In this document: positions 808-64,000 of the stretch, piece after piece
Numbering within the stretch: the stretch's first letter is position 1
Layout: the number at the start of each line of letters is the position of its first letter
From: Patescibacteria group bacterium
Lineage (GTDB): Bacteria; Patescibacteriota; Patescibacteriia; JAXHNJ01
NCBI GenBank assembly: GCA_034520665.1
Contig: JAXHNJ010000002.1
Location: forward strand, 544,660-608,659
Length of the DNA stretch: 64,000 bases
Direction of reading: 5' to 3'
Notes under the pieces: model-generated
Databases searched by the model: none
What the model saw: only the letters and a program-made list of their open reading frames with translations
What the model was told of the DNA's origin: nothing
Translations under genes and position numbers: made by a program

Positions 808-881
808 TGGTGGAGATGCGGGGAATTGAACCCCGAACTGGTCAATGCGAATGACCTATTATACCGTTTAACTACATCCCC
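808..881 (-). tRNA. tRNA-Ala (anticodon CGC) with encoded CCA
   Basis: Reverse complement is GGGGATGTAGTTAAACGGTATAATAGGTCATTCGCATTGACCAGTTCGGGGTTCAATTCCCCGCATCTCCACCA. It has a G3:U70 Ala identity pair, a TTCGCAT anticodon loop and a GGTTCAATTCC T-arm. Confidence 0.75.
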
Positions 882-940
882 AACAAGCCGAGGCGGGCCG
901 GTCTACCAATTGAGTTAATGGGCCTACTCCGGCAGGCGGC

Positions 941-985
941 TGCGAATAACCTATTACACCGTTTAACTACATCTCCAGCAAGGTA
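941..985 (-). other. Extra copy of the tRNA-Ala 5' half (acceptor, D-arm and anticodon stem up to the anticodon loop) with no matching 3' half
   Basis: Reverse complement is GGAGATGTAGTTAAACGGTGTAATAGGTTATTCGCA. It is near-identical to the first 36 nt of the downstream tRNA-Ala and then diverges. Confidence 0.4.
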
Positions 986-1044
986 AGGCGATCAGTATTA
1001 CCTACCAGTCTGTTGTAGTTAGCTAAAGCAAAAAAATTCTGCTG

Positions 1045-16298: not shown

Positions 16299-16877
16299 TA
16301 AGCGTTGAAAACGTCTAATCGCTTCGCTTGTTGAAGGTGTTCAAGACGCCTTAATATTATTAGAGAATTTTTATCAATTCGTCACGGCTCGGAGCAAACG
16401 GAGCGGAAAAATTTCACTAAAACATTCACAAAGATCTTTCCTCTATAATAGTGGCGTAAAGAAAATAGACCGGACTAAAGTCCGTATGAAAATAATATTT
16501 TCTTTTTTCCTAGCCACTTTCCTGCCCGACAACGGCTTCGCCGTTAGGCGAAGACAGGCGGGAGTGGCGTACTCATGAAATAGAAAATAAGGTTATACCG
16601 ACGCCCCCCTTTTACCACTTCGTCCGATCATTAAAGAGTAGATGTCAGTCGCGACTGACATCTACGGATAGCAGGCCGCATGGAGAAATCCTGTTAAATT
16701 AACCATAAGGTTCTCTCCACTTGGGTCGAGAGGGGATAGTAATGGTTAAACCTTGTCGGCAAACTTTTTTTAGTAAAAGCTCCAAAGGAAAACTTCGCCC
16801 TAAATTATGAAAGGAAAATAGCTGGTTTGCCGTAGGCGCGGATAAAGGCTTGACCCCTTCTTTTCACAAAAGGCGAT

Positions 16878-16909
16878 GGCTTGACCCAGGCTAACTTTAG
16901 CGCTAGAGT
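16878..16909 (+). promoter_or_regulatory. Repeated promoter-like element, copy A: TTGACC-17-TAGAGT
   Basis: GGCTTGACCCAGGCTAACTTTAGCGCTAGAGT. The 28-nt core is near-identical to copy B at 17556-17587. It lies 30 nt upstream of the 16938 gene. Confidence 0.45.
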
Positions 16910-16937
16910 AAAAGAGAAATAATATTCTAAAAATATT

Positions 16938-17498: not shown

Positions 17499-17555
17499 TA
17501 TTACACGGCTTTTTAAGGCGGTTTTTGTTTGCTTGCAAGCCGTAGCCTTGGCGAA

Positions 17556-17587
17556 GGCTTGACCCATGCTAACTTTAGCGCTAAACT
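17556..17587 (+). promoter_or_regulatory. Repeated promoter-like element, copy B: TTGACC-17-TAAACT
   Basis: GGCTTGACCCATGCTAACTTTAGCGCTAAACT, about 60 nt upstream of the 17645 gene. Confidence 0.45.
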
Positions 17588-17644
17588 AAAGGGGGTTTAT
17601 TTTTAGCTTTAAACTAAAAAATACTAATTATTAATTCTAATTAA

Positions 17645-30798: not shown

Positions 30799-31016
30799 AT
30801 CTTATCAATTTTGATTAATTTATCGTCATTTAAATAGTAATTCCGATAGCTGGAGTATTTGTATTCTTCAGGGTTTTTGGTCAGTTTAGTATAAATTGGA
30901 TTATTATGAATATATTTTAGTTTTTACTCTAATTTCTTCTCGGAATAGATATTAAAGTCGTAAAAATCATTCATCCAGACTGAATATTTTCTCTTCTTTC
31001 TAAAACTAGTCGGGTA

Positions 31017-31113
31017 GGCCGAATCCTCAGATTCGGCCGAGAGACTAGCCCGATCTGAGGATCGGGCCGTAATACCCAGTGTAGGAGAGTGGCGCGGATC
31101 TCCTGATCCGCGC
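31017..31113. repeat. Array of three perfect GC-rich hairpins with GATC-centred stems
   Basis: GGCCGAATC-CTCA-GATTCGGCC (31017-31038). GCCCGATC-TGAG-GATCGGGC (31048-31067). GCGCGGATC-TCCT-GATCCGCGC (31092-31113). Confidence 0.6.
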
Positions 31114-31168
31114 TTCTCGGGTAATTTTAAGGGCTTCCTTGGCAGTTTGTTTTATACTAGGTAGTTTC

Positions 31169-31354
31169 CAATGGCTTTTTTATTCCAAACCCACCACCAA
31201 AACCTTACTAGCTGCTATAACCATAACCAATTAGCAAAAAAGAGGGTTTTGGGCCGAGCCGCTAGTTTGGTTATTAGGCTGAGTCAATGGTTTTTTATTC
31301 CAAACCCACCACCAAAACCTTACTAGCTGCTATAACCATAACCAATTAGCAAAA
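31169..31354. repeat. Two copies of a 70-nt direct repeat separated by a 46-nt spacer
   Basis: CAATGG(C)TTTTTTATTCCAAACCCACCACCAAAACCTTACTAGCTGCTATAACCATAACCAATTAGCAAAA at 31169-31239 and 31285-31354, with one indel between copies. Confidence 0.7.
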
Positions 31355-31558
31355 CATAAATCGCCGGATAAATCCGGCGCCTTCACCTCTTCATCCGCGT
31401 AGCTGGAGATTTATCTCCAGATGTCAGAATTAAATGAGCGTGGTTGGGCCTGATTATAATTTGAAAAAAATTATCGTAAACAAATAAATTTAATTATAAA
31501 CCTTACTGGTTACAAAGTAAGTCTGGTTTTCTTTATTGATAGTTTTAAGGGGCATTAG

Positions 31559-50294: not shown

Positions 50295-50330
50295 ACCCGC
50301 CTTTAAAACTATTAAAGGCGGGTTTTGTTT
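50295..50330 (+). terminator. Rho-independent terminator
   Basis: CCCGCCTTTA-aaacta-TTAAAGGCGGG followed by TTTTGTTTT. Confidence 0.65.
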
Positions 50331-50340
50331 TAGTCATATA

Positions 50341-50475
50341 CTTTTGACGGTTTTAATCATTAAATTTAACTAGGTATTGACTGCGCATTTATTATTTAGA
50401 GAGCAGCGTTATAAATGGTTGTAATACCACCTTTTTCTTTATCTAAAAATCGCTATATATACGGGCCTATTATCA
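50341..50475. repeat. Intergenic repeat element, copy 1 (about 135 nt, about 75% identical to copy 2)
   Basis: ACTTTTGACGGTTTTAATCATTAAATTTAAC...ATTATTTAGAGAGCAGCGTTATAAATGGTTGTAATACCAC... Confidence 0.6.
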
Positions 50476-50792
50476 AGACTGATTAAGCTTAAGTAAAAAG
50501 AATGATATAATATAAATGATAAACAATTTAATAGAACTAAATTTATGAGCCAAAAAATTGATAAATCAAGAGCTAAAAAATATCTTTCAGGTATATTTAC
50601 TCATAAGGGCGGGAGTGTTGCTAAAGCTAATGAGACTTTATCAAAAATCAAAAGCCGCAAATTAAAATTTATAATAATTTAAAAAAAGAAAATACCATAA
50701 TTTTATCTTTTAATTTTGTCTTAAAAAAATAAAAAGGTTAATTGACGAGATTATTTAAATGGCTACAAAATTAATTAAATCTGTTTAAAAAT

Positions 50793-51734
50793 ATGAAGTC
50801 TAGAAAAAAAATAAACTTTTTTATTGTCGGAGTAGCCAAATCCGGTACTTCATCTATGCACAATTATCTGCAGCAGCATCCTAAAATATTTATGAGTCCG
50901 GTCAAAGAAACCTACTTTTTTAGTAAAGATTTAAGAATAGAAAATTTCAAGGGAAAAATTAAAAAAAATAAAAAAGTAAATAAGAAAAAATATTTTTCAA
51001 ATTCTCTGCTTCCTCAAGTTCAACAGATTTTCATAAAAAATATAGAAGATTACTATCAAATATTCAGAGAAGCTAAAAACGAAAAAATATTAGGAGAATC
51101 ATGCCCCGGCTATTTATACAGTCAGTTAGCGGCCAAAGAGATATATCAATACAACCCTAAAGCCAAAATAATGATAATGTTAAGAGACCCAGTAGAAAGA
51201 GCTTACTCAAATTTTATGATGCAATTGGAAAATGGACTTTTAAAAACAGACTATTTTTTAGAAGAAGTAAAAAAAGATTATAACCAGAATGATAAAGGCT
51301 GGGGTAGAAGTCATTTGTTTATTGAATCCGGTTTATATTATAAACCAGTAAAAAGATACTTAGATCTATTTCCTCAAAACAATGTAAAAATAATTTTATT
51401 TAATGATTTTATAAAAAAAACTAATTTAGTTCTAAGTCAAGTTTGTGATTTTCTAGATATTGAAAAATTTAATTTTATGACAAAGAAGGCTCATATGAAG
51501 TCTCAAAAACCAAAATTTCTCTTTCTTTATAATCAAGTGATAAATCTGGCGCAATCGGCTAATTTACTAAAAATAGTACCTGAAAGTTTAAGAGAAAGAA
51601 TTAAAAAAATGTTTATGAAAGAAAAGCCTAAGTTAACTGAGGAAGAAAGAAAAACACTTCGGCCCTATTTTAAAGAAGATATTTTAAAACTACAAAACTT
51701 AATAGGAAAAGATTTGTCAGACTGGCTCAAATAA
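50793..51734 (+). CDS. Sulfotransferase-family protein
   Basis: 5'-PSB-like motif VGVAKSGTSS and 3'-PB region (RDPVERAYS). Confidence 0.75.
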   Translation: MKSRKKINFFIVGVAKSGTSSMHNYLQQHPKIFMSPVKETYFFSKDLRIENFKGKIKKNKKVNKKKYFSNSLLPQVQQIFIKNIEDYYQIFREAKNEKILGESCPGYLYSQLAAKEIYQYNPKAKIMIMLRDPVERAYSNFMMQLENGLLKTDYFLEEVKKDYNQNDKGWGRSHLFIESGLYYKPVKRYLDLFPQNNVKIILFNDFIKKTNLVLSQVCDFLDIEKFNFMTKKAHMKSQKPKFLFLYNQVINLAQSANLLKIVPESLRERIKKMFMKEKPKLTEEERKTLRPYFKEDILKLQNLIGKDLSDWLK

Positions 51735-51774
51735 GGTGAATAAATTTAAATAACATAAAAATGTTTTAAGTAAG

Positions 51775-51915
51775 CACTTTTGATGGTTTTAATTATTAAA
51801 TTTAACCAAGGATTAATTAGATATTTTATTATTTAGAGAGTAGGGTAATAAATCATTATAATACCATTCCTCTTTTTATCTAGTTATCTAGAAAACCGCC
51901 ATATGTCTGGGCACA
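51775..51915. repeat. Intergenic repeat element, copy 2
   Basis: ACTTTTGATGGTTTTAATTATTAAATTTAACC...ATTATTTAGAGAGTAGGGTAATAAATCATTATAATACCA... Confidence 0.6.
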
Positions 51916-52106
51916 TTACCTATTTTATTTGACTTTTTAGCTAATTTATGCTATTATTAGACTAGCAAAACAAAAACAAAAAGACAATTAAATAAAAAAA
52001 ATATTTTTAAGTCAATATTAATGATTAATAATAATATCTTCTATTAACTTAAATAGCCGCTTTTTTAAACTGCGGTTTTTTTATTAACTAAACTAAAAAT
52101 AAATTT

Positions 52107-54824
52107 ATGCCAAAATTTAATACGGAAACAGAAGTAAAAACATCAACTCCTGTTTCCCACAAAATCGCTGTTGGTATCATGATGATTGGAGCTTTATCCG
52201 CCGCTATGGGTATTGTTATGGGTTTGCCAGTTTTTAAAGAAAAGAAAGTGATTGGCGCCCAGGCCTTTAAACCACTTCAATTGACTGACGGAGTACCCAG
52301 CACCAATGAAATTAAGGATTCACGCTACGCCCAGTATCAGTTTTTGCGTGATAGTGTGGTTATGGCAACTTATAATTATTCTAATGACTCGGCTTTTCAA
52401 GAAAACAAAAATTTTAAAATTGGTGACAAAGATTCTCTTAATTCTTTTTTTATCAAAGAAGCATCAGCACAAACTACTTTTTCCATAGAAGATATTACTA
52501 ATGGTTCATTTGAACCAGGAGATACTATTGACTCAAATAGCAAATCACCTTTGCAAGTTAAGATTACCCAGAGCGAAATTGACTCGGCTGAAATTCCCGC
52601 TATTACTTTTAGTTTAGTCACTGATATTGGTAATAAAACCCTTTGTTTACCCAGTAATACTATTAATCAAGGATCCGTAGTCAGTTATTATTTTGATGTG
52701 GACGGTACTCCTTATCTAGACAGTAATCTGAAAAATAAAGCCATGAATAGCACTTGCCAGGTAAATTCTATAGCTTATGATCCAACCACAATTAGTGAAA
52801 TAAATTTTAATGAACCCTACCCAGAAAGCATTGCTGATAGTTTTGCTATTTATTTTATCCGCTACGATCAAAGTATGTTTGCCATGGCTGATAATACTTT
52901 TGTTAAAATGACACCTGATGATGAAATAGATTTTGTGGATGGTGGTAAAGCCCCTTTTACCTTAGGTCCTGGTTACTATGGAGCGCCAGAAGAAATTACC
53001 GTACCAGCCCGAATTTATACAGTTGATTCTAATTTAGGAACACAGACACTTTGTCTTCCAGAACAGACTATTACCGGCGAATGGAATGAGAATGATCAGA
53101 AATATTTAGGCAAAGGTACTCCTTACTACTACGACCAAAACGGCACGCCTTACACAGACGTACTTTTAACTAACATGGCTACTACCAAGCCTTGTCATGA
53201 ATTATTAAAAGATAGTTTAACCCCTTACTATATTAGTGAGGCTTCTCTTAGTGATACTATAGATGAATATAGTAATATTAAATTTAAAAGAGATAACACT
53301 GAATTAGGAGTACTTTACATTAACAATAATCAATATTCTCGTAATTTTGATGATTCTCTAAATCCAGAAAGTAAATCACCTCTCTTACTGGCGATGGAAA
53401 CCGCTAACTTGAGTGAAGACGTTACTTTTCCAGCCAGAACTATTACTTTAAAGAACGCTAATTACGATGAGACTGAATACACTAACACTCTTTGCTTTCC
53501 GGAAACCACTACCTCTAACGGAGAGACCATTAAGTACTACTACGACCAAAACGGCACGCCTTACACAGACGTACTTTTAACTAACATGGCTACCACTAAG
53601 CCTTGTCATGAATTATTAAAAGATAGTTTAACCCCTTACTATATTAGTGAGGCTTCTCTTAGTGATACTATAGATGAATATAGTAATATTAAATTTAAAA
53701 GAGATAACACTGAATTAGGAGTACTTTACATTAACAATAATCAATATTCTCGTAATTTTGATGATTCTCTAAATCCAGAAAGTAAATCACCTCTCTTACT
53801 GGCGATGGAAACCGCTAACTTGAGTGAAGACGTTACTTTTCCAGCCAGAACTATTACTTTAAAGAACGCTAATTACGATGAGACTGAATACACTAACACT
53901 CTTTGCTTTCCGGAAACCACTACCTCTAACGGAGAGACCATTAAGTACTACTACGACCAAAACGGCACGCCTTACACAGACGTACTTTTAACTAACATGG
54001 CTACTACCAAGCCTTGTCATGAATTACTGGCTAATGTTTTTAAACCTGAAGGAATTAATGAGGCCAGATTGGATGAAATTGTTTCTACGCCGACTAAAAT
54101 TAAGTTTATCAGAGAAAATACGGTATTAAATTATTTATGGTCACACCAAGATCCCAGTTTCCAAGATCCCGATTTTGAAGATTTAGAAACAGTATCCGGA
54201 GGTAGTTCTCCGCTTATGTTAAAACTTTCTTCTTTATTAGCTCAAACTTTTCCTGAGAGATTAGTTCAAATTAAAGCCCTTGAAAATAATAAAGAATATA
54301 CAAAAACGCTATGCATACCAGAAACAGAAATCACGGAAAATGGTACAAAAGAATATTTCTATGATAATAATGGAAGCCTCTATGCTTATACTGACGCCCT
54401 ACTAACCAATCGGATCATTTGTGATACCTGTATACATAATCCACCGGAAGTAAGCATTTCCCCTTTAACGAAATCGGGTTACGCTGGAGATAGTTTCAGT
54501 TACAGTATTAGTGTAACCAATCCAAATAATCCAGAAATTTGCCCCCGTTCAGAAATATATACTTTTTATTTGCAAGAGCCGGCTGGTTGGGAAGCTAATT
54601 ATGATTTAGACACTTTATATGATCCACCGGCTTTGAGAGTTGAACCGGGAGAAACAAAAGAAATATCAATGACTTTAATTAGTCCTGACAATATTTCATC
54701 TGGAGATTATGAAGTTCGTGTAAACTTAACCAACTGGGTTGCTATTAGTGGATCTGGTTATGCTGAGGTTACTATTTCGCCGACTCCAAAGAATTCTGAT
54801 GACAAGGAAATTATGGTAGAATGA
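52107..54824 (+). CDS. Large repeat-containing surface protein with an N-terminal TM, YYxDxNGTPY...C modules and a C-terminal CARDB-like domain
   Basis: 905 aa. Four modules carrying YY(F/Y)D(V/Q)(D/N)GTPY...TKPCHELL, two of them identical. The C-terminal tail is an Ig-like beta-sandwich type. Confidence 0.85.
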   Translation: MPKFNTETEVKTSTPVSHKIAVGIMMIGALSAAMGIVMGLPVFKEKKVIGAQAFKPLQLTDGVPSTNEIKDSRYAQYQFLRDSVVMATYNYSNDSAFQENKNFKIGDKDSLNSFFIKEASAQTTFSIEDITNGSFEPGDTIDSNSKSPLQVKITQSEIDSAEIPAITFSLVTDIGNKTLCLPSNTINQGSVVSYYFDVDGTPYLDSNLKNKAMNSTCQVNSIAYDPTTISEINFNEPYPESIADSFAIYFIRYDQSMFAMADNTFVKMTPDDEIDFVDGGKAPFTLGPGYYGAPEEITVPARIYTVDSNLGTQTLCLPEQTITGEWNENDQKYLGKGTPYYYDQNGTPYTDVLLTNMATTKPCHELLKDSLTPYYISEASLSDTIDEYSNIKFKRDNTELGVLYINNNQYSRNFDDSLNPESKSPLLLAMETANLSEDVTFPARTITLKNANYDETEYTNTLCFPETTTSNGETIKYYYDQNGTPYTDVLLTNMATTKPCHELLKDSLTPYYISEASLSDTIDEYSNIKFKRDNTELGVLYINNNQYSRNFDDSLNPESKSPLLLAMETANLSEDVTFPARTITLKNANYDETEYTNTLCFPETTTSNGETIKYYYDQNGTPYTDVLLTNMATTKPCHELLANVFKPEGINEARLDEIVSTPTKIKFIRENTVLNYLWSHQDPSFQDPDFEDLETVSGGSSPLMLKLSSLLAQTFPERLVQIKALENNKEYTKTLCIPETEITENGTKEYFYDNNGSLYAYTDALLTNRIICDTCIHNPPEVSISPLTKSGYAGDSFSYSISVTNPNNPEICPRSEIYTFYLQEPAGWEANYDLDTLYDPPALRVEPGETKEISMTLISPDNISSGDYEVRVNLTNWVAISGSGYAEVTISPTPKNSDDKEIMVE
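53124..53945 (+). repeat. Nucleotide-identical in-frame tandem duplication, 2 x 411 bp, plus a 75-bp partial third copy
   Basis: The TACTACTACGACCAAAACGGCACGCC... unit starts at 53124, 53535 and 53946. The 137-aa module is repeated exactly. Confidence 0.85.
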
Positions 54825-55220
54825 TAAAATTAATTTCACCCTTGACAAAAATAAATTAATAAGCTAGACTGGGGCTATTAATTAGTAAGTATCCCAATAA
54901 TTGATTTGAAAAAAATTTAACTTTAGCGGGGTACATAAGAAAGTTCATCAAATTATGAACGATCAACAAGGCTTTGGGCAAAGACAAATGCACCAGGGCA
55001 AATGGACCTGCTCAGAATGCGGAACCGAGATTACCGAGCTTCCTTTTGAGCCGGATGGTCAACGCCCGATTTATTGTCGGCAATGCCATCAGAAACGTCG
55101 CCAAAATAGAGGCGGCGGACGCGGACAGTTTTAAGAAAGTGATTTTTTAAACGTCAAATATAAGTCCAAAAGTAAAAAACTCCTTTAGTAATTTAAGGGA
55201 GTTTTTTTGTATTAAAATTA

Positions 55221-56420
55221 TTAAGGTTTTTGAAGAGGAGGCATTTTTTTATGGAGATACTGATCTCGAGGGGCTTTAAGCTGCCAAACAACTATCAGGC
55301 TTAAGAAAAGAATTATAGAAAGAATAATAAAAATGTATTCAATTATTAGAAGATTTAATACAATAATACCAATAAGAGAACCAAAAAGAAATCCCAAAGG
55401 CTTCAGATTGCGGAAAAAATTTATATAATCAATGTCTTCGACATCTACACATTTGAAAAAGTAAGACTCTCTCATTGACTGGACCAAAGCCGCTCCGCTG
55501 CGGCTTAGAAAAAGTATTAAAGCCCATATTATAGGATTAGCCTGACCGGTAAAAAAGAAAAGTAAAGTTGAAACAGAAAGAATTAAAAATCCGAAAAAAA
55601 TCATTTTTCTTTCTCCTTGCCGGCGATCGGCAAAAATACCGGCTGGTATCTGAAATATAACAAAGGGTAAAAGCATAAAAGTAAAGATGGCGCCAATAAC
55701 AGTCCAGCTATAGCCCAGATTTTGTGAAAGATATAGGGGCATATAAATAGTGACCACAGAAAAGAAAATTTCTAATACAAAAGAAATAAAAAATATGTCT
55801 TTAAGCCGGCTGTTTTTTAAAATTGTCTTTAGAGTTTTTAATGAATGATGGTGATCGTAATGTACCTTTCTGGTGAAGAGAACTTTTTTTTGAGAAAAAA
55901 TGATAATAAACATAGCCATCAGAAAGAAAATAGTGATTTTATAAATTAAACGGTAATTATCAGAGCCCATAATATAACCGACAATTATTGGCGAAATAAC
56001 CCAGGCTGAATCAAGTATAGTAAAATAAATACTGCGTACCCGACCTGTATTTCTATTAGAAGTAAAACGTTCAAGAAATATGTCTAAGCTGGTGGTTAAA
56101 AGACAGACACAGGCATAAATAACAGTAAAGGAAATAAAAGCTACGATTTTAGATTGAGTGTTGATAAGTATAAATATTGAACCAATTTCTATTATTAGAA
56201 TAACTAGAGAAAAAACAAAATTAGTGAAACGTTTTATTATTAACGGCACTAAATTCATCAAAAGCAAAGTTAGACCGGCGCCGGCCATAAAGAAAAAGCC
56301 GACATTTTCGGCTTTAGCAAATTCTTCCAAAAAAGAGGATCTAATATAAGCGGGAAAAGCAGCTGAAAGGGCTAGGAAGAAAACTAAAAAATATATAATT
56401 TTTTTATTTTTGTTTTTCAT
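55221..56420 (-). CDS. MFS transporter
   Basis: 12-TM topology with a central loop. Confidence 0.8.
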   Translation of the reverse strand: MKNKNKKIIYFLVFFLALSAAFPAYIRSSFLEEFAKAENVGFFFMAGAGLTLLLMNLVPLIIKRFTNFVFSLVILIIEIGSIFILINTQSKIVAFISFTVIYACVCLLTTSLDIFLERFTSNRNTGRVRSIYFTILDSAWVISPIIVGYIMGSDNYRLIYKITIFFLMAMFIIIFSQKKVLFTRKVHYDHHHSLKTLKTILKNSRLKDIFFISFVLEIFFSVVTIYMPLYLSQNLGYSWTVIGAIFTFMLLPFVIFQIPAGIFADRRQGERKMIFFGFLILSVSTLLFFFTGQANPIIWALILFLSRSGAALVQSMRESYFFKCVDVEDIDYINFFRNLKPLGFLFGSLIGIIVLNLLIIEYIFIILSIILFLSLIVVWQLKAPRDQYLHKKMPPLQKP

Positions 56421-56434
56421 TTATCAAAAATGTT

Positions 56435-57079
56435 TTATGGGGTGATGGTATAAGTATTAACGGTTACACTTTGCATTTTATCATCAAAATTATTGGGATC
56501 TTTTTCATAGACATACCAAGTGTAAGGAGAAGTATTTTCATTTATCTGGTTGGCTTGGGCCCCAGTTATTTTCATAGTGTAATAATATTTTTTTGTATTT
56601 AAACCTTTTTCTAAAGCTTTTTGGTATATTTCAGTAGAAGAATTTTTTTCCTTTAAGGCGTTTAAATTTATAATCTGACTTTCAAGTTTTGTCGAAAGAG
56701 AATCTCCTTCTCCATAAGATTCTCCCAGCGATATTTTTCCAGAAGTCCAGTCAGACATAACTACTTGATTTTTTGAAGGTGAATAAAGACGAGCTATCCA
56801 ACTTATAAATTTACCCTCTTTATAACCATTAAAAATTCTCTGATTATTGACATAGATAGAATTAACATCACTAGTAAGCTGATGAATTTCGGCGTCTTTA
56901 GACCATTCTTCTTTAGCTTTTTCCAGAATTTCTTTAACAGCTTTTTGACTGCTGGCCAACTCATTATCTTCAGATGTTTTTGTAGAAGTAGTATTAGTGC
57001 AACCAGGGAGTATTAAAAGGCAGAAAATAAGCAAAAAAGCGCTGATTATTAGGCTGGAATATTTTTTCTTGCTAGTCAT
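56435..57079 (-). CDS. Hypothetical lipoprotein
   Basis: Signal peptide with lipobox LLILPGC. Confidence 0.65.
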   Translation of the reverse strand: MTSKKKYSSLIISAFLLIFCLLILPGCTNTTSTKTSEDNELASSQKAVKEILEKAKEEWSKDAEIHQLTSDVNSIYVNNQRIFNGYKEGKFISWIARLYSPSKNQVVMSDWTSGKISLGESYGEGDSLSTKLESQIINLNALKEKNSSTEIYQKALEKGLNTKKYYYTMKITGAQANQINENTSPYTWYVYEKDPNNFDDKMQSVTVNTYTITP

Positions 57080-57269
57080 ATATTTAATATTATTTATTAT
57101 TCTTTACCTTTTATATAATAACATATTTTAAAATATTAAAAAAGATGTAGCCTAGTTAATACCTGTCGCTAACATTTGGTATAATCAAGGGTAATAGGTG
57201 TTAACTATTAAATAGAAAGTAGAAAGGTCTCCTATGTTAGTTAAATATTTCAAAGAATTAAGATTTAAG

Positions 57270-57370
57270 GAGTATTTATGGGCAGAAAAGCATGATTTAA
57301 AGATATTTGTCAGTTGTTTGGTATTTCAAAAAAAAGTCTATTATTATTGGTGTTTCCCTAAATCATGAAA
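57270..57370 (+). pseudogene. Remnant of an IS630/Tc1-like transposase N-terminal HTH, with an in-frame TGA and a frameshift
   Basis: RBS AAGGAG then ATGGGCAGAAAAGCATGA... reads MGRKA*FKDICQLFGISKK. A -1 shift at an A8 run then gives KVYYYWCFPKS, matching the HTH_Tnp pattern (xELFGVSxSTVYRW). Confidence 0.25.
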
Positions 57371-57546
57371 AAACTATCTTAATAGCGTTTTTCTAAACCA
57401 TATTCTAATATTAAATTAACTCCTAAAGTTAAAATTTATTGAGCCGGAAAAACTAAAAACTAATTATGGTTTTTTAAAAATAAAAATAAATAGTAAATAA
57501 AAGACGGGGATATATCATCATTAGATATTGACTATATAATTCCTTG

Positions 57547-57903
57547 CTATTTATATTTTTTTTGACAACTGATCGCATAAAAAAGAATACCAATTATAAC
57601 AAAAGGAAATCCAGAAATTAAAACCGCAAAAAGATGATTATGTCCGGCCATAAAATAAGCAAAAATAGAATGAATTATACCACCACTAATAAGAATAATA
57701 CTACCAAGCTTTTCTTTTCGCCAAGCAACCATAAAACCAATAGTGGTGATAATTACTAATAAGTTAATAATTAATGATTCGCCGGTGAAACTTTCAAAAT
57801 CAGAGAAAGCATAGCCTAGAGATATTATCAACCAGAAAAGAACTATAATTAAGCCAAGAGTACGGGCTAGCCAACGAATTATTTTAATACTTTTATTATT
57901 CAT
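57547..57903 (-). CDS. Small hypothetical membrane protein (4 TM)
   Basis: 118-aa hydrophobic ORF. Confidence 0.55.
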   Translation of the reverse strand: MNNKSIKIIRWLARTLGLIIVLFWLIISLGYAFSDFESFTGESLIINLLVIITTIGFMVAWRKEKLGSIILISGGIIHSIFAYFMAGHNHLFAVLISGFPFVIIGILFYAISCQKKYK

Positions 57904-58048
57904 ATATTTAGTATAGCAGAAATAAATTTAAAATGGTAAATAATAGTATAAATCTTATTCAGTACCGAGATTATTTTTGATAAAAAATAATAATATAATA
58001 AAAAATAACTTAATTATTAATTAGGTTGCTTTTTTATTTATTAAATAT

Positions 58049-59332
58049 TTATTCGTATCTCAAAGCGTCAATCGGATCGAGCCGGGAAGCGCGAATAGCC
58101 GGAGCCACGCCAAAGAAAATACCGACCAAAGCAGTAAAAGCATAGGCCAAAAGGACTGATTGTAAATTAATCTCTGGGGATAGACCGAATTGGACCTCCA
58201 TAATGCCAGCGCCCAAGAAAGCCAGACCGACTCCAATAGTACCGCCCAAAAAAGTTAGAAACATGGCTTCGACCAAGAATTGGACTAGAATATCACTGCC
58301 GGAAGCACCAATCGCTTTACGTAGTCCTATTTCCCGGGTTCTTTCGGTCACTGAAACCAACATAATATTCATGACGCCAATACCGCCAACCAAAAGCGAA
58401 ATAGCGGCAATACCCCCCAGCATGGCAGTAATCACTCCCAAGACCTGGTCAAACATATCCAAAATTTCTTCCTGAGTGGTAATCGAAAAATCTTCCACTC
58501 CTTCATGAGCTTGCAGTAAGGACTGGCGGATATCTTCTTTGATCGTGTCAACATTGTCCACGTTTTTTACGATCACTACTATCTGGGTAATATTAATGGA
58601 AGCGCTAATTTTTTCCACGGCGGTCATCGGTATAAAAATCATATTAGTCATGTTAGAGTTTCCAAAAAGATCTTCTGATTCAACTGACTCTTGAGCGCCG
58701 ATTATTTCAAAGCTCTCTTTGCCAATGTAAATAGTTTGGCCAATAATATCTTGGACTGATTTGTCTGGGAAAAGATTTTCGGTGGCTCCTGATTGGAGAG
58801 TAGCCACTGATGAGGAGTCATCATATTCTTGCTGGTTAAACATTCGGCCAGCGTGTTCGCCGGTGGCCATCTCTGAATTTTCAAAGGCCTTTTCCAAATC
58901 AGCGGTAGTACCAACAGCAATAACCCGATCTCTGGATTGTTCAATTAAGTTTTGTTCAGAACCGGTGTTAGCTGAGTATTGATTGGCCGGCACTGTTGGT
59001 GGAGTACTGGAAATTGGCAAAGGCACCACTACCATCGGTACCGTGTATTGAATACCTTCAACCTTTTTTATAACTTCTAAGTCTTCTTCAGAAAAAGTGC
59101 CGGAGCTTGACAAGGGCCCGCCGCCAATAGAGCCAGGCATTACCATAAGAAGATTTGAACCTAGGTCTTCTATTTGTCCGGTGACTTCGCTTTTGACTCC
59201 CTGACCGATGCCGATTAGCAAAACAATGGAAAAAACACCAATAATGACCCCGAGCATAGTCAAAAATGAACGGGTCTTTTTGGCCCAAATAGCCTTGATA
59301 GCCAATTTAATATTTTCTAAAAATTTATACAT
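58049..59332 (-). CDS. ABC transporter permease, MacB/FtsX family
   Basis: N-terminal TM, large periplasmic MacB_PCD-like domain and a C-terminal FtsX 3-TM domain. Confidence 0.88.
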   Translation of the reverse strand: MYKFLENIKLAIKAIWAKKTRSFLTMLGVIIGVFSIVLLIGIGQGVKSEVTGQIEDLGSNLLMVMPGSIGGGPLSSSGTFSEEDLEVIKKVEGIQYTVPMVVVPLPISSTPPTVPANQYSANTGSEQNLIEQSRDRVIAVGTTADLEKAFENSEMATGEHAGRMFNQQEYDDSSSVATLQSGATENLFPDKSVQDIIGQTIYIGKESFEIIGAQESVESEDLFGNSNMTNMIFIPMTAVEKISASINITQIVVIVKNVDNVDTIKEDIRQSLLQAHEGVEDFSITTQEEILDMFDQVLGVITAMLGGIAAISLLVGGIGVMNIMLVSVTERTREIGLRKAIGASGSDILVQFLVEAMFLTFLGGTIGVGLAFLGAGIMEVQFGLSPEINLQSVLLAYAFTALVGIFFGVAPAIRASRLDPIDALRYE

Positions 59333-59339
59333 ATATTTA

Positions 59340-60008
59340 TTAGACTATCTGTCCGTCTTTTATTTTAATTATTTTTTGAGCTTGACTAGCAATTTCTTTA
59401 TCATGAGTAACAATTAAAATGGTAGTGCCCTGCTGGTTTAGTTCTTCTAGAATATTCATTATTTGCTGGCCGCTTTTTGAGTCCAAATTACCGGTGGGCT
59501 CATCAGCTAAAATAATAGCCGGATCATTAACTAGAGCGCGGGCAATAGCCACTCGCTGCAGTTCCCCGCCGGATAGCATGTTTGGCTTATGCCTAACCTT
59601 GTCGCCCAAACCGACTTTTTCCATCATTTTTTTAGCCTTAGCTCTTCTTTCCTGGGGTCTGATGCCACGATAAACCAAAGGCAGTTCTACGTTGCTAACA
59701 GCTGGCATGCGGGGAAGGATATTAAAGTTTTGAAAAATAAAACCGATTTTATTACGCCGTATTTTTACTAATTGAGCCTTGCCCAAATTTTCTATTTCCT
59801 TTTCTTCAAATTTATAAACTCCCGAAGTAGGCTTGTCCAGACAGCCGATAATATTCATCAAAGTGGATTTACCAGAACCGGAAACACCCATCACCGCCAG
59901 CATTTCGCCTTTGGCCACTTTTAAAGAAACCCCGTTTAAAGCGGCAAATTGATTGGATTTTCTTTCAAAATATAATTTTTTGATGTTTTCTAGTTCTATT
60001 AAAGACAT
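59340..60008 (-). CDS. ABC transporter ATP-binding protein (MacB/LolD-like)
   Basis: Walker [10 protein letters not shown], signature [15 protein letters not shown] and Walker B ILADEPT. Confidence 0.93.
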
Positions 60009-60274
60009 TTTTTTTATCTATTATTTGAATATTATAACACAAGATTACCGATAATAACAAATTAATAGTTCTATCTAGATTAGCTAAAAAACATCTCTTT
60101 CTTTTGAGATGTTTTTAATAATAATTTATAGATTAATTTAAATTTTTCTAAATCCTTATTTGATTTTATAATTATTATTTTTTTATTATTGTATTTTTCG
60201 AATAATTTTAATACATTTGTTTTTCTTGTTTTCGGATAATCCCAAAGAATCCATTTAATCATTTGAAAATCTAT

Positions 60275-60395
60275 TTTTTTCTTTTTTTAGCCTTAGCCTC
60301 CAGCATCTTTCTTTTAATCTCCAGCTTTTTTTGTTTTGTGGGATTTAGATTTTTGGCGTCGGCCAACAGGGTGGGCTCAGTTCTTATTTAATTGT
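60275..60395. repeat. 115-bp direct repeat, copy 1
   Basis: TTTTTTCTTTTTTTAGCCTTAGCCTCCAGCATCTTTCTTTTAATCTCCAGC...GGCGTCGGCCAACAGGGTGGGCTC. It is near-identical to 61722-61850. Confidence 0.75.
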
Positions 60396-60430
60396 TTATT
60401 ATATAATTAATCGCTAATATATTTTAATAA

Positions 60431-61153
60431 TTACCAGTTTTTACATTGTCTTTTTAACTCTTTTGTAGCATAAGAATCATCAGGGATTAAATCACATATA
60501 GAACGGTCATTATTGTAAATGGCAACTCTACTATAACATCTTAATACTTCAAAAGTTCTATCAATTTTGTCACAAACACTTATGTCATGTCTTTTCCCGG
60601 CTATACCTGTGTAGCATTCATTTTGAGATGTTTTATTACTTATTGATTGAGATTCTTTAGTTATAAGATTACAAATAGATAAGTCATCTTTTCTTATTGC
60701 AATTCTAATTAAACATTGATTTTTATCCCAATCTACCGTATACGTTGAACAGGAATCAACGTTTTCAGAAGATTCAATAAAAAAACTTCCTAATATAATT
60801 GCAGCGATTATTATTGTAAATGTCCCCACACTTATTTTTACTTTTCTTTTTTTCCCTTCATTATTTAATCTAGCAATGTATCCAATAAAAAAAACCAGCG
60901 CAATATTAATTAAATAGGGTATTATTACCAATAATAAATTTGATATGGGAGAATGTGTTGTGCCAGTAAAAAAAGGAAAAGCATTTGGAATTAAATAAAT
61001 AAATAAAATTCCAGGCATAAGTAATAATATGATGATGCCTGCAAAATAAAAAATTAACCAATTATTTGATATTTCTAATAAGACATATGATAATATGGCT
61101 AAAGCAGTGAAAATTGTTATAAAAATTAACTCAATTTTTCTACCTTTATTCAT
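60431..61153 (-). CDS. Membrane protein with 5 N-terminal TM helices and a C-terminal triple Cys-repeat domain
   Basis: Three repeats of the form C-x8-10-D-(L/I)-S-(I/V)-C-(N/D)-(L/K)-I: NQCLIRIAIRKDDLSICNLI, NECYTGIAGKRHDISVCDKI, LRCYSRVAIYNNDRSICDLI. Confidence 0.6.
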   Translation of the reverse strand: MNKGRKIELIFITIFTALAILSYVLLEISNNWLIFYFAGIIILLLMPGILFIYLIPNAFPFFTGTTHSPISNLLLVIIPYLINIALVFFIGYIARLNNEGKKRKVKISVGTFTIIIAAIILGSFFIESSENVDSCSTYTVDWDKNQCLIRIAIRKDDLSICNLITKESQSISNKTSQNECYTGIAGKRHDISVCDKIDRTFEVLRCYSRVAIYNNDRSICDLIPDDSYATKELKRQCKNW

Positions 61154-61184
61154 ATTTCTATTTTATAATAAAATTACCCATTTT

Positions 61185-61330
61185 GTGAAGATGGTGTCTG
61201 CGAGTGACTAATGCATTCTGTTCTCGTACCGAGGCCTCTACTCCCGCCTGCCTTGCCGATTTGGCGGGCGGCACTTTCCAGATCGATGGCGTCTTAAAAG
61301 TATCCCAATCACTCATATCAGTATATACGC
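61185..61330. ncRNA. GC-rich (about 55%) island with a strong stem, read as a small structured RNA candidate (identity unassigned)
   Basis: CCCGCCTGCC-ttgccgattt-GGCGGGCGG pairing in a 30% GC background. The overlapping short ORFs on both strands look spurious. Confidence 0.3.
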
Positions 61331-61721
61331 AGCTGTTTGTATTAATACTCAAATTACTGTTTATGTTTATATTTGAATTTACGTTTTTATTATTTAAAAT
61401 ATTAACGGTATTTTTATTATTACTTACATTTTTTACGCCCCATCGATTAAAATGCTAATAGTGTAGTAATAAAAATTATGATTGCAGATATAATTACAAT
61501 AGAAATAGATGCCACTATTTTTTTCTTGGTTTTAATAAAAGGGTTTATCTCAAAATCAGAAATTACTGGCTGGTGATAATAATTCTTAATTTTATAAAAA
61601 TAATAGGGAAAAACTTTGATTTTTTTAATTCAAAATATAAACCTGGTAAAAAAGGATGAGCAAATATTGGTTCCTTTTTAACTGTATTTTTTATACCAAA
61701 TATTTTCTGAAGATATTATTT

Positions 61722-61850
61722 TTTTCTTTTTTTAGCCTTAGCCTCCAGCATCTTTCTTTTAATCTCCAGCCTTTTTTTTGTTTTGTGAGATTTAGATTTT
61801 TGGCGTCGGCCAACAGGGTGGGCTCTTTTTCCAGGCATATATTTTATTAA
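61722..61850. repeat. 115-bp direct repeat, copy 2
   Basis: Same sequence as 60275-60395 except for A7 versus A8 homopolymer length and a few substitutions. Confidence 0.75.
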
Positions 61851-62300
61851 TATTAATAGTAATTATAAGTTATTTTATCTGTTTTTCAGAATAAATTCAA
61901 GGGCTAAAAATAAAATAACAGCGGCTATTTATAATTGGTTGTCTGTCTTCTTTTTTTTATTGAATGTTTGAAATAAAGAAGCAAAATAGAATATATCAGG
62001 TGTTTTGATTGAATAAAGAAAATCTTCCAGAAAAATTTTAATATTTAATTTTTAATCTTTGGATTCTCAAATTTATATATGCCTAAAGTGAGTTTATCTC
62101 GGTAGCTGAAGATATTCAAAAAAAATATAATTTTACACTTGACATAAATAACAAATAATGATAGTATTCCTATCAAACAGAAGAGTAAATTTTTTTCAAA
62201 ATTATAAAACTCTTTTGTTTAAAAATATAGTAAGTATATAAATAAAGTCGAATTTTAAAGTTACTATATCAATCTAATTAACTCAACATTATTCTACACA

Positions 62301-62498
62301 ATGCAAGGTACTATCAAGAAATTAACAGATAAGAATTTTGGTTTTATTACCGCGGAAGATCAGGACAAAGATCTTTTCTTCCACGCTAACGAGCTTGAAG
62401 GAGTAGAATTTGATCAACTTCAAGAAGGTGACAATGTCACTTTTGAAGTATCAGATACTCCTAAAGGTCCGGCCGCTGTTAAGGTTAATAAAGCCTAA
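62301..62498 (+). CDS. cspA: Cold-shock protein (CspA family)
   Basis: MQGTIKKLTDKNFGFITAEDQDKDLFFH shows the RNP1/RNP2 motifs of the cold-shock domain. Confidence 0.9.
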   Translation: MQGTIKKLTDKNFGFITAEDQDKDLFFHANELEGVEFDQLQEGDNVTFEVSDTPKGPAAVKVNKA

Positions 62499-62524
62499 AT
62501 AATCCAAAATCTGTAAAAATTAAG

Positions 62525-62552
62525 TACCCGCCCAAACAGGCGGGTATTTATA
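62525..62552 (+). terminator. Rho-independent terminator after csp
   Basis: ACCCGCC-caaaca-GGCGGGT followed by ATTTAT. Confidence 0.6.
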
Positions 62553-62610
62553 TTCAATAATTTTTAAATTAATATAAGTCTATTCTTCTTAAGTTTTGTC
62601 TAAAATTTAC

Positions 62611-63261
62611 TTAATTTTTAATATCCAGTTCTTTTATTTCCAAAATTTTCAAAGAATATCTAGCCATATCGCGTATGTCTTTTCCTCGGTCAATAATCAC
62701 TCCTTTAATAAACAAAGGACTAAGAGAGGAATCTCTTTTTATGTATTCTCTAGGGCGAGTTTCAGGACAATCATAAGAAACAATTTTTTCAATATCGCTA
62801 TTAGGATAATGAACATCTAAGCCTTGAGTGTAGGGATGGACATTTTCTTCTATCATTTTTTTATTTAATAATACATAATAAATTTTAAAACCAGGAGCTT
62901 CAACTATATTGCCGGTGGTTTGTATTTCTTTACCGACATAATTTTCTTCTTCTCCTATAATATCTTCTAAAGCCACATAATTAGAAGTTTTTTCTATACA
63001 CTGACCTTCAGCACAAATACAATTTCTTTTGGGTAAGAAAAAACATTTTACATCATCACATTCTTTTGAATCTTTATGTAAGCAACCGCAACAAGTATTA
63101 ATACAATCTGAATCATTAGAACATTTAAGATCTTGAAAATCTGCATTATTTAAAAAAACATATCCTAAAATAAAAATTACTAAAATAACGGAAATAACGA
63201 CTGCAATTGTTCTCTTTTTCATAAAAACAATAATAAAAAGAGATTTAAATAACTTTCCCAC
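62611..63261 (-). CDS. Cys-rich membrane-anchored/secreted protein, paralog A
   Basis: N-terminal TM then LKCSNDSDCINTCCGCLHKDSKECD, a Cys-rich module shared with the adjacent paralog. Confidence 0.65.
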   Translation of the reverse strand: MGKLFKSLFIIVFMKKRTIAVVISVILVIFILGYVFLNNADFQDLKCSNDSDCINTCCGCLHKDSKECDDVKCFFLPKRNCICAEGQCIEKTSNYVALEDIIGEEENYVGKEIQTTGNIVEAPGFKIYYVLLNKKMIEENVHPYTQGLDVHYPNSDIEKIVSYDCPETRPREYIKRDSSLSPLFIKGVIIDRGKDIRDMARYSLKILEIKELDIKN

Positions 63262-63356: not shown

Positions 63357-63845
63357 TCAATAAACAGTATTCGGAATATACTGGCACTTATTATTTATAC
63401 ATTCTACATATTCAATACTAATTCCAACAAAACAATCAGGAGCACATATTGGACAAATTTCATGATATTCTTGTATTTTTTTCTCAATTTCTGTTGGCTC
63501 TAAATCATCTAAAAGAAGTTCAGAATTTTTATTAACAAGCCAATAACAACCAAAAGGACAATCAATTTTAGAAATTATTCTACAATCCTCTTTTACCTCA
63601 CAATAGTTTTCTTTATCTATTAAATCTAAAATTTCTTGTTCTTGTTCTTGACAATTATATTCTTTTTCTTTTATTTCTTCACAAGAACCATTAATACAAA
63701 TACAATTCCTAGTAACTAAAGCATCACATTCTTTATCACATTCTTTTGAATCTTTATGTAAGCAACCACAACAAGTATTAATACAATCTGAATCATTAGA
63801 ACATTTAAGCTCACTTTCTTGATTATAAAAAAACCACGTTTTCAC
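63357..63845 (-). CDS. Cys-rich protein, paralog B. The reading frame stays open upstream to the window edge, so the true N-terminus may lie beyond 64000.
   Basis: It carries the identical LKCSNDSDCINTCCGCLHKDSKECD module plus more CxxC pairs (CPICAPDC, CINNKC). It starts at GTG (63845) in the track. The frame has no stop up to position 64000. Confidence 0.55.
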   Translation of the reverse strand: MKTWFFYNQESELKCSNDSDCINTCCGCLHKDSKECDKECDALVTRNCICINGSCEEIKEKEYNCQEQEQEILDLIDKENYCEVKEDCRIISKIDCPFGCYWLVNKNSELLLDDLEPTEIEKKIQEYHEICPICAPDCFVGISIEYVECINNKCQYIPNTVY

Positions 63846-64000
63846 TAGAGTGTTAAAATCTTGCTGATAATCATTAAATTTCTCTGGCCGGGCGTTTAAC
63901 CATAACCGGTATAATTTTTTATTATAAATGAAATGAATTAGAATATCATTATTATTACTGCTGTCTTTTATTATTTGTTTTAAGGCTCTTTGTCCGTCAA

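Follow-up and report, generated by a model that had tools for sequence, protein, structure and literature searches.

We analyzed a 64,000-nucleotide (nt) stretch of contig JAXHNJ010000002.1 from a Patescibacteria group bacterium (assembly GCA_034520665.1), referred to below as the window. Both the genes of the window and the loci related to them point to the Patescibacteria. Toward the end of the window, two near-identical copies of a short sequence lie on either side of a low-GC segment. One of them (copy 2) is part of an intact gene for a very small, basic protein, and the other (copy 1) is a fragment of the same gene. Between them lie a gene for a membrane protein with Cys repeats, a GC-rich patch and an AT-rich tail (Table 1). 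This arrangement had been noticed in an earlier reading of the DNA, which offered several explanations for it and is referred to here as the original prediction.

The repeat pair and the gene for a small basic protein

Repeat search and pairwise alignment placed the two copies in direct orientation with a start-to-start distance of 1445-1447 nt. They are identical in 106 of 109 aligned columns (divergence approximately 1%), and the identity is complete over the first 54 nt and the last 37 nt. Between these stretches lie the only differences, one 2-nt indel and one G/A substitution. Written on the coding strand, the indel reads A8GG in copy 2 and A7G in copy 1 (AGCC-T8 and AGC-T7 on the plus strand). 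The substitution, TCT in copy 2 and TCC in copy 1, is synonymous in the peptide frame. The original prediction had described near-identical 115-bp direct repeats around 1.45 kb and an A7/A8 difference that put the copies in different frames. The repeats, their coordinates and spacing, and the difference in frame all stand; the length should read 107/109 nt, and the A7/A8 difference gives way to the 2-nt indel and the substitution. On the minus strand both copies translate to a basic peptide that includes ...LEIKRKMLEAKAKKRKK, as had been proposed.

A 24-mer of the repeat has two exact occurrences in the window, whereas none was expected (100 shuffles), and no third sequence resembling the pair was detected window-wide. 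The boundaries of the repeats are sharp. Outside them, similarity was not significant for the left flanks (1601/2000 and 1759/2000 shuffles scored as high as or higher than the real sequences) or for the right flanks (274/2000 and 88/2000). Two broader duplications were rejected: tandem duplication of a larger segment (the flanks are unlike, and the window has no second gene for the 240-amino acid (aa) membrane protein) and an extended older duplication (the flank similarity is not significant).

The repeat extends from nt 14 of the coding sequence (CDS) of the intact gene to the second base of its stop codon (nt 14-122). A product of 48 aa had been read from copy 2, but the open reading frame (ORF) encodes 40 aa, and the "...KNN" tail belongs to another frame. 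The promoter-containing block upstream of copy 2 could be aligned with the upstream regions of orthologs at three related loci (L022, L094 and L014). Since the ATG and this conserved block are both found at copy 2, copy 2 and its upstream region represent the functional gene in its ancestral form.

Copy 1 starts at CDS nt 14 and has neither the first 13 nt, with the ATG, nor the promoter. Its 2-nt deletion falls within the invariant KTKKR motif, removes part of the codon for an invariant Arg and shifts the frame, and the sequence ends in the stop codon. Given the missing start and promoter and the frameshift, copy 1 is best classified as a pseudogene fragment. The only ORF at this site, 31 codons from a TTG start, is a chimera of two frames and should not be annotated as a gene. 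It follows that the repeat is not a duplicated gene start, one of the earlier suggestions; the duplicated part is the gene body and 3′ end. No intrinsic terminator passed our scan 3′ of either copy, and the folds there are weak. Directly after copy 1, a 60-codon ORF (60080-60262, minus strand) occurs in sequence of 11-20% GC; another pipeline called it as a gene, no family match was found, and it is probably spurious or lineage-specific.

Table 1. Position of the repeat copies, genes and other features at the locus (coordinates refer to the window)
Feature	Position	Strand	Basis or remark
Repeat copy 1	60272..60378	minus	107 nt; 5′-truncated pseudo-copy of the peptide gene
Membrane protein gene, 240 aa	60431..61153	minus	ORF list
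ORF of 64 codons across the GC-rich patch	61158..61352	minus	52-aa gene in another pipeline; coding status doubtful
Promoter-like site for the 240-aa gene	61189-61160	minus	consensus scan
GC-rich patch, 56% GC	about 61185-61300	none	composition; surroundings 20-27% GC
AT-rich tail of the segment	61353..61715	minus	six-frame translation
Intact peptide gene, 40 aa, poly-basic: MPGKRAHPVGRRQKSKSHKTKKRLEIKRKMLEAKAKKRKK, then stop	61716..61838	minus	ORF and translation; contains copy 2
Repeat copy 2	61717..61825	minus	109 nt; within the intact peptide gene
Promoter-like site of the peptide gene, TTGAAT-17-TAAAAT	61872..61900	minus	consensus scan

Read-derived sequences were available as Logan unitigs (k=31) of run SRR26473340. 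Three of them matched the window exactly (54340-60301, 60349-61746 and 61796-63084), and each stops exactly 30 nt into a repeat, as a two-copy repeat requires; they do not span the indel, and the arrangement cannot be phased from them. Breaks in both repeats also fit a graph composed of a one-copy chromosome and a circle of segment plus repeat. In addition, both differences that make up the indel are changes in homopolymer length. An assembly artifact or a mixed population, in which the chromosome has one copy of the gene and the 1.45-kb unit is a circle or strain variant threaded into the contig, would account for these observations. We nevertheless consider it quite improbable. The copies carry distinct variants in mid-repeat, within 54 and 37 nt of unique sequence, and reads of 100-150 nt or a large-k assembly would be expected to phase these variants with both flanks. 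No other homopolymer frameshifts were detected in the long genes of the window (three apparent ORF overlaps are due to upstream alternative starts), which makes it unlikely that the 2-nt indel is a sequencing artifact. A replication gene, moreover, is missing from the segment.

A conserved basic-protein family in Patescibacteria

The peptide gene was identified in at least 114 species-representative genomes, nearly all of which are labeled as Patescibacteria or Candidate Phyla Radiation (CPR) lineages, and six homologs, 67-86% identical, were found in metagenomes. Orthologous ORFs comprise 36-46 codons and have, at all but a few loci, a common invariant core, KT.KRLE.K; a few longer ORF calls were inflated by an upstream in-frame Met or a missing stop. 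The family consensus is MAKRxTGVGKxxKSHSHKTKKRLEIKRLMLEAKAKK. Mean pairwise identity among 80 distinct core sequences was 0.80, 0.92 and 0.46 at codon positions 1, 2 and 3, respectively, a pattern that argues for purifying selection on the peptide. Judged by its sequences, the family is a real, strongly conserved gene under purifying selection, distributed phylum-wide and previously unannotated.

Known families offered no clue to its function. The peptide family had no match in Pfam, NCBIfam, PHROG or the PDB. A comparison of 53 family members with Pfam and NCBIfam returned scattered chance matches only, and the best hit of the family profile against all PDB chains was not significant (E = 1.5). 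Literature searches for the peptide motif and for conserved small CPR proteins turned up nothing relevant. Neighbors of the gene are variable, with three recurrent types: a DEAD-box helicase, a CspA-type cold-shock protein and an FtsJ/RlmE methyltransferase. This recurrent linkage to genes for a cold-shock protein, an RNA helicase of the DEAD-box type and an rRNA methyltransferase suggests that the peptide may be an RNA- or ribosome-associated factor. Very small basic proteins associated with the ribosome occur in bacteria, for example bS22 and bL37 of actinobacteria. The peptide resembles them in its length (approximately 40 aa), its extreme richness in Lys and Arg, its wide conservation within one phylum and its linkage to RNA- and ribosome-related genes; however, it has no significant PDB, Pfam or NCBIfam match, and it is only a candidate for membership in this group.

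Relatives were examined for the duplicated arrangement with tblastn, a test that detects copy 1 in the window and is thus able to find such a copy. A second copy within approximately 6 kb on either side of the gene was found at 0/92 related loci. Likewise, none of the 92 has a frameshifted gene, and each has one intact copy. The frame is conserved and the arrangement is absent from all of these loci, the opposite of what the original prediction had named as evidence against itself.

The run of A residues in the lysine codons varies synonymously in length among orthologs, from A5 to A8. This variation bears on a functional switch, suggested earlier in the form of a recombination cassette toggled by slippage, in which slippage or recombination between the copies would turn the basic peptide or the enclosed membrane protein on and off. 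The locus does have an A8 run within a short CDS and a second copy that is out of frame, as homopolymer contingency loci do, and direct repeats could mediate deletion. However, copy 1 lacks both start codon and promoter, and a restored frame would still not turn it into a gene. The A-run is an ordinary feature of Lys codons in this gene, which is intact at 92/92 loci. Direct repeats delete rather than invert, and any switch would be one-way. In contrast to contingency loci, no ortholog at these loci is frameshifted, nothing observed points to polymorphism in tract length, and the copy that is out of frame could not be expressed. We give such a switch hardly any credence, and a dedicated recombination cassette is not supported.

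Close relatives of the source genome were scarce. A scan of metagenomes with a codon-degenerate pattern gave one locus (76% identity), and a scan of genomes gave many distant orthologs and a single partly syntenic contig, L022. Look-ups of the exact CspA, ATPase and 240-aa proteins returned only SRR26473340 besides the source metagenome-assembled genome (MAG). L022 has 75-80% DNA identity with the window and has the MacB-type ATPase and CspA in common with it, but other genes, a different ABC pair, lie between these two; its single peptide gene is located elsewhere, beside a DEAD-box helicase gene. A separate observation concerns two adjacent paralogous genes for Cys-rich secreted proteins in the window (62611-63261 and 63357-63845, minus strand). 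They have a stretch of 78 nt that is 97% identical (63055-63132 and 63735-63812; motif LKCSNDSDCINTCCGCLHKDSKECD) and no Pfam match, and small Cys-rich proteins like their products flank the peptide gene and CspA in L022.

The segment between the copies

The segment between the repeats (60379-61716) is 1338 nt long and, apart from the GC-rich patch, has a GC content of 20-29%; the window as a whole has 34%, and the adjacent ABC genes have 41-50%. Its one clear gene encodes the 240-aa protein. This protein is predicted to have 4-5 transmembrane (TM) helices followed by three copies of a Cys repeat of approximately 30 aa, with three D-x-S-[IV]-C motifs, in agreement with the 5-TM protein with a triple Cys repeat and the neighboring GC-rich element that had been described between the copies.

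Among 5.8 billion proteins, the sole full-length match of the 240-aa protein was itself, a hypothetical protein of a Patescibacteria group bacterium MAG at NCBI, encoded on a 698-kb contig. Residues ~125-230 are part of a very large repeat family, for which an exhaustive HMMER search gave 976 cluster representatives at E<=1e-3. The repeat unit, approximately 30 aa of the form CYxxxAxxxxDxSICxxI, contains two conserved Cys residues, and up to 12 stretches per protein were matched. Most relatives consist of one N-terminal signal anchor helix and 3-12 repeats. In the alignment the Cys, Ala and Asp positions are conserved and the anchor helix of the relatives corresponds to TM5. No Pfam model covers the protein or its Cys repeat, and tblastn detected no second copy of the gene in the window. 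Judged by predicted topology and repeat alignment, the 240-aa protein thus belongs to a common family of secreted or membrane Cys-repeat proteins, within which it is divergent and carries four additional TM helices.

The GC-rich patch includes a 9-bp hairpin of G+C pairs, CCGCCTGCC/GGCGGGCGG. Its folding energy gave z = -2.2 on the plus strand and z = -0.6 on the minus strand. It had no Rfam match at the gathering score, nor at E<=10 with relaxed filters, and ARAGORN placed none of the four tRNAs of the window in it; a known RNA was rejected on these two grounds. A 64-codon ORF crosses the patch and stops 4 nt short of the start codon of the 240-aa gene. It matched only itself among the 5.8 billion proteins, and its GC content at third codon positions is 0.46-0.55, versus 0.16-0.17 in the neighboring genes. 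No frame of the patch showed a drop in third-position GC, that is, no codon periodicity, and there were no matches in the PDB, Pfam or PHROG. Taken together, these results led us to reject a coding sequence as well. Six-frame and word-7 nucleotide comparison of the patch with the window and 94 loci yielded chance-level matches only. An RNA, a protein-binding site and a foreign coding remnant are the candidates for what the patch represents.

In the AT-rich tail, the minus strand has no ORF of at least 30 aa that begins with a start codon. It holds an Asn-rich, low-complexity frame and a remnant of a TM helix, KKKIVASISIVIISAIIIFITTLLAF, which is frameshifted, has no start and ends at a stop. 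The tail looks like decayed coding sequence.

Origin of the repeat-bracketed segment

The order of parts on the coding strand is the promoter, ATG and copy 2, then unrelated DNA, then copy 1 without a start, then again unrelated DNA. We consider it probable that this is an ordinary insertion scar, left by the recent entry of foreign or relocated DNA just 3′ of the peptide gene with duplication of approximately 107 nt of that gene. In line with this reading, the segment is compositionally distinct and its one clear gene has no full-length relative. Of the explanations in the original prediction, insertion with long target duplications comes closest to this anatomy of an intact gene, 1338 nt of unrelated low-GC DNA and a truncated copy, although the duplications are not of the transposase type. 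Target-site duplication by an insertion sequence, transposon or miniature inverted-repeat transposable element was rejected: the duplication is 107 nt instead of the expected 2-14 bp, inverted ends are missing and no transposase domain is encoded.

Under the insertion reading, the ancestral state would have been one 40-aa gene with its own promoter (now copy 2 and 61839-61908), followed directly by the sequence that is now at positions <=60271. The event would have placed 1338 nt of low-GC, lineage-specific DNA directly 3′ of the gene, along with a duplicate of gene nt 14-122. Its cargo would have comprised the gene for the surface or membrane Cys-repeat protein, the second ORF, now decayed, and the GC-rich patch. 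Since then copy 2 would have remained functional, whereas copy 1, by now minus 2 nt, would be decaying. The 1.45-kb unit could be lost through RecA-type recombination of one repeat with the other, and this structural effect is the only likely consequence of the arrangement; if the crossover fell 3′ of the indel, the gene left behind would be intact, and if it fell 5′ of the indel, frameshifted.

Two routes to this product may be envisaged. In the first, a single (Campbell-type) crossover would have joined the chromosomal gene and a circular DNA with a 5′-truncated copy of the gene. Campbell-type integration, known from suicide plasmids and circularized fragments with an internal gene fragment, likewise yields homology, insert and homology in direct orientation, with one copy retaining the promoter and 5′ end and the other 5′-truncated, and the duplication corresponds to the shared homology (here approximately 107 nt). 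It differs from the present case in that the segment has no vector or replicon functions, and the circle with a truncated copy is hypothetical. In the second route, a template switch during replication would have copied foreign DNA, and replication would have re-entered at the start of the stretch already replicated. Template-switch duplication-insertions of the microhomology-mediated or break-induced-replication type also leave an unrelated insert flanked by a short direct duplication of local sequence, and the window contains another, older example. On the other hand, there is no clear microhomology at the AT-rich junctions and no source copy of the insert was found.

The older example is a second direct-repeat pair (50326-50480 and 51762-51925), approximately 150 nt long and approximately 80% identical, with a spacing of 1436-1437 nt. 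It brackets a low-GC gene for a 313-aa sulfotransferase (50793..51734) and a 45-aa ORF. This insert is probably the result of an older event of the same kind, and events of this kind have therefore probably recurred in this genome.

Several observations weigh against the insertion scar. Metagenome, genome and exact-protein searches yielded no relative of the same species or genus in which the site is empty, and the polarity of the insertion is therefore read from the anatomy alone. The missing source copy, mentioned above, counts here as well, and the k=31 unitig graph fits a one-copy chromosome plus a 1.45-kb circle equally well. Finally, the end of the repeat coincides with the stop codon. 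This is what site-specific elements at the 3′ ends of genes produce, and it is not expected from generic models of homologous recombination or template switching.

This last point belongs to a different explanation, in which the repeats are the attL and attR attachment sites of a site-specific integrative element, the 3′ part of the peptide gene served as attB, and the segment is a 1.3-kb non-autonomous or decayed remnant. Islands and prophages at the 3′ ends of tRNA, tmRNA and small protein genes are similar in that direct repeats surround compositionally foreign DNA and the repeat reaches the 3′ end of the target. The target gene stays intact, being regenerated by a repeat that extends to its stop codon, and here the target is also a short, highly conserved gene. 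The unit, however, is only 1.3 kb. No recombinase, integrase, transposase or phage family was found in the ORFs of the segment (Pfam, NCBIfam and PHROG), and no recombinase or mobility gene among the ORFs from 47.8 to 64 kb, where the window ends (position 64000). The ends of the segment have no terminal inverted repeats. A viral contig collection contained nothing related to the peptide gene, the 240-aa gene or the GC-rich patch, and phage, plasmid and E. coli collections gave no match for the patch, the 240-aa protein or the peptide. A second partial copy beside the gene was not seen at any of the 92 loci, and there is thus no sign of recurrent use of the site. An identity of 107 nt is also long for a core site. 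Of the hallmarks of a site-specific integrative element, then, the gene-regenerating direct repeats are present, while the recombinase and recurrent site use are absent, and we regard this origin as unlikely.

A still more specific version, for which we see very little chance, is that the 1.45-kb unit is a minimal non-autonomous integrative cassette that targets the 3′ body of the peptide gene and is mobilized in trans or by host recombination. If this were true, it would represent a new class of attachment site in Patescibacteria, and the unit could be excised as a circle, occasionally leaving a frameshifted null copy of the gene. What probability remains is assigned to other explanations.

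Several other repeats were observed in the window. An intergenic region between a YibE/F-like gene and a glutaredoxin-like/SfLAP membrane protein gene (30960-31440) is dense in short G+C-rich hairpins, such as GGCCGAATCCTCAGATTCGGCC and GCGCGGATCTCCTGATCCGCGC, and contains two identical 64-nt sequences in direct orientation (31176-31239 and 31291-31354); at the gathering score, it matched no Rfam family. At 808-990 (minus strand), tRNA-Ala(CGC) is preceded, 95 nt upstream, by a second copy of its 5′ half (941-990; 86% identity), which includes 14 nt of upstream sequence and extends to the anticodon loop. This copy is followed by a G+C-rich spacer and may be a duplicated tRNA fragment or what remains of a second tRNA. 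A 41-nt promoter-like repeat, GGCGAWGGCTTGACCCAKGCTAACTTTAGCGCTA... (16872-16912 and 17550-17590), lies upstream of consecutive genes (16938.. and 17645..) and is probably a shared regulatory sequence. Within a 905-aa surface-protein ORF (52107..54824), three tandem 411-nt repeats (99%, 98% and 86% identity) occupy 53124-54064.

The repeat structure itself is of modest weight, as one more insertion of foreign DNA that would have left a partial pseudogene copy. It is useful mainly as a marker of recent gene flux within the variable low-GC surface-protein regions of a reduced Patescibacteria genome. The peptide family is the more interesting by-product of this analysis. As a candidate RNA- or ribosome-associated factor, it is worth experimental attention.

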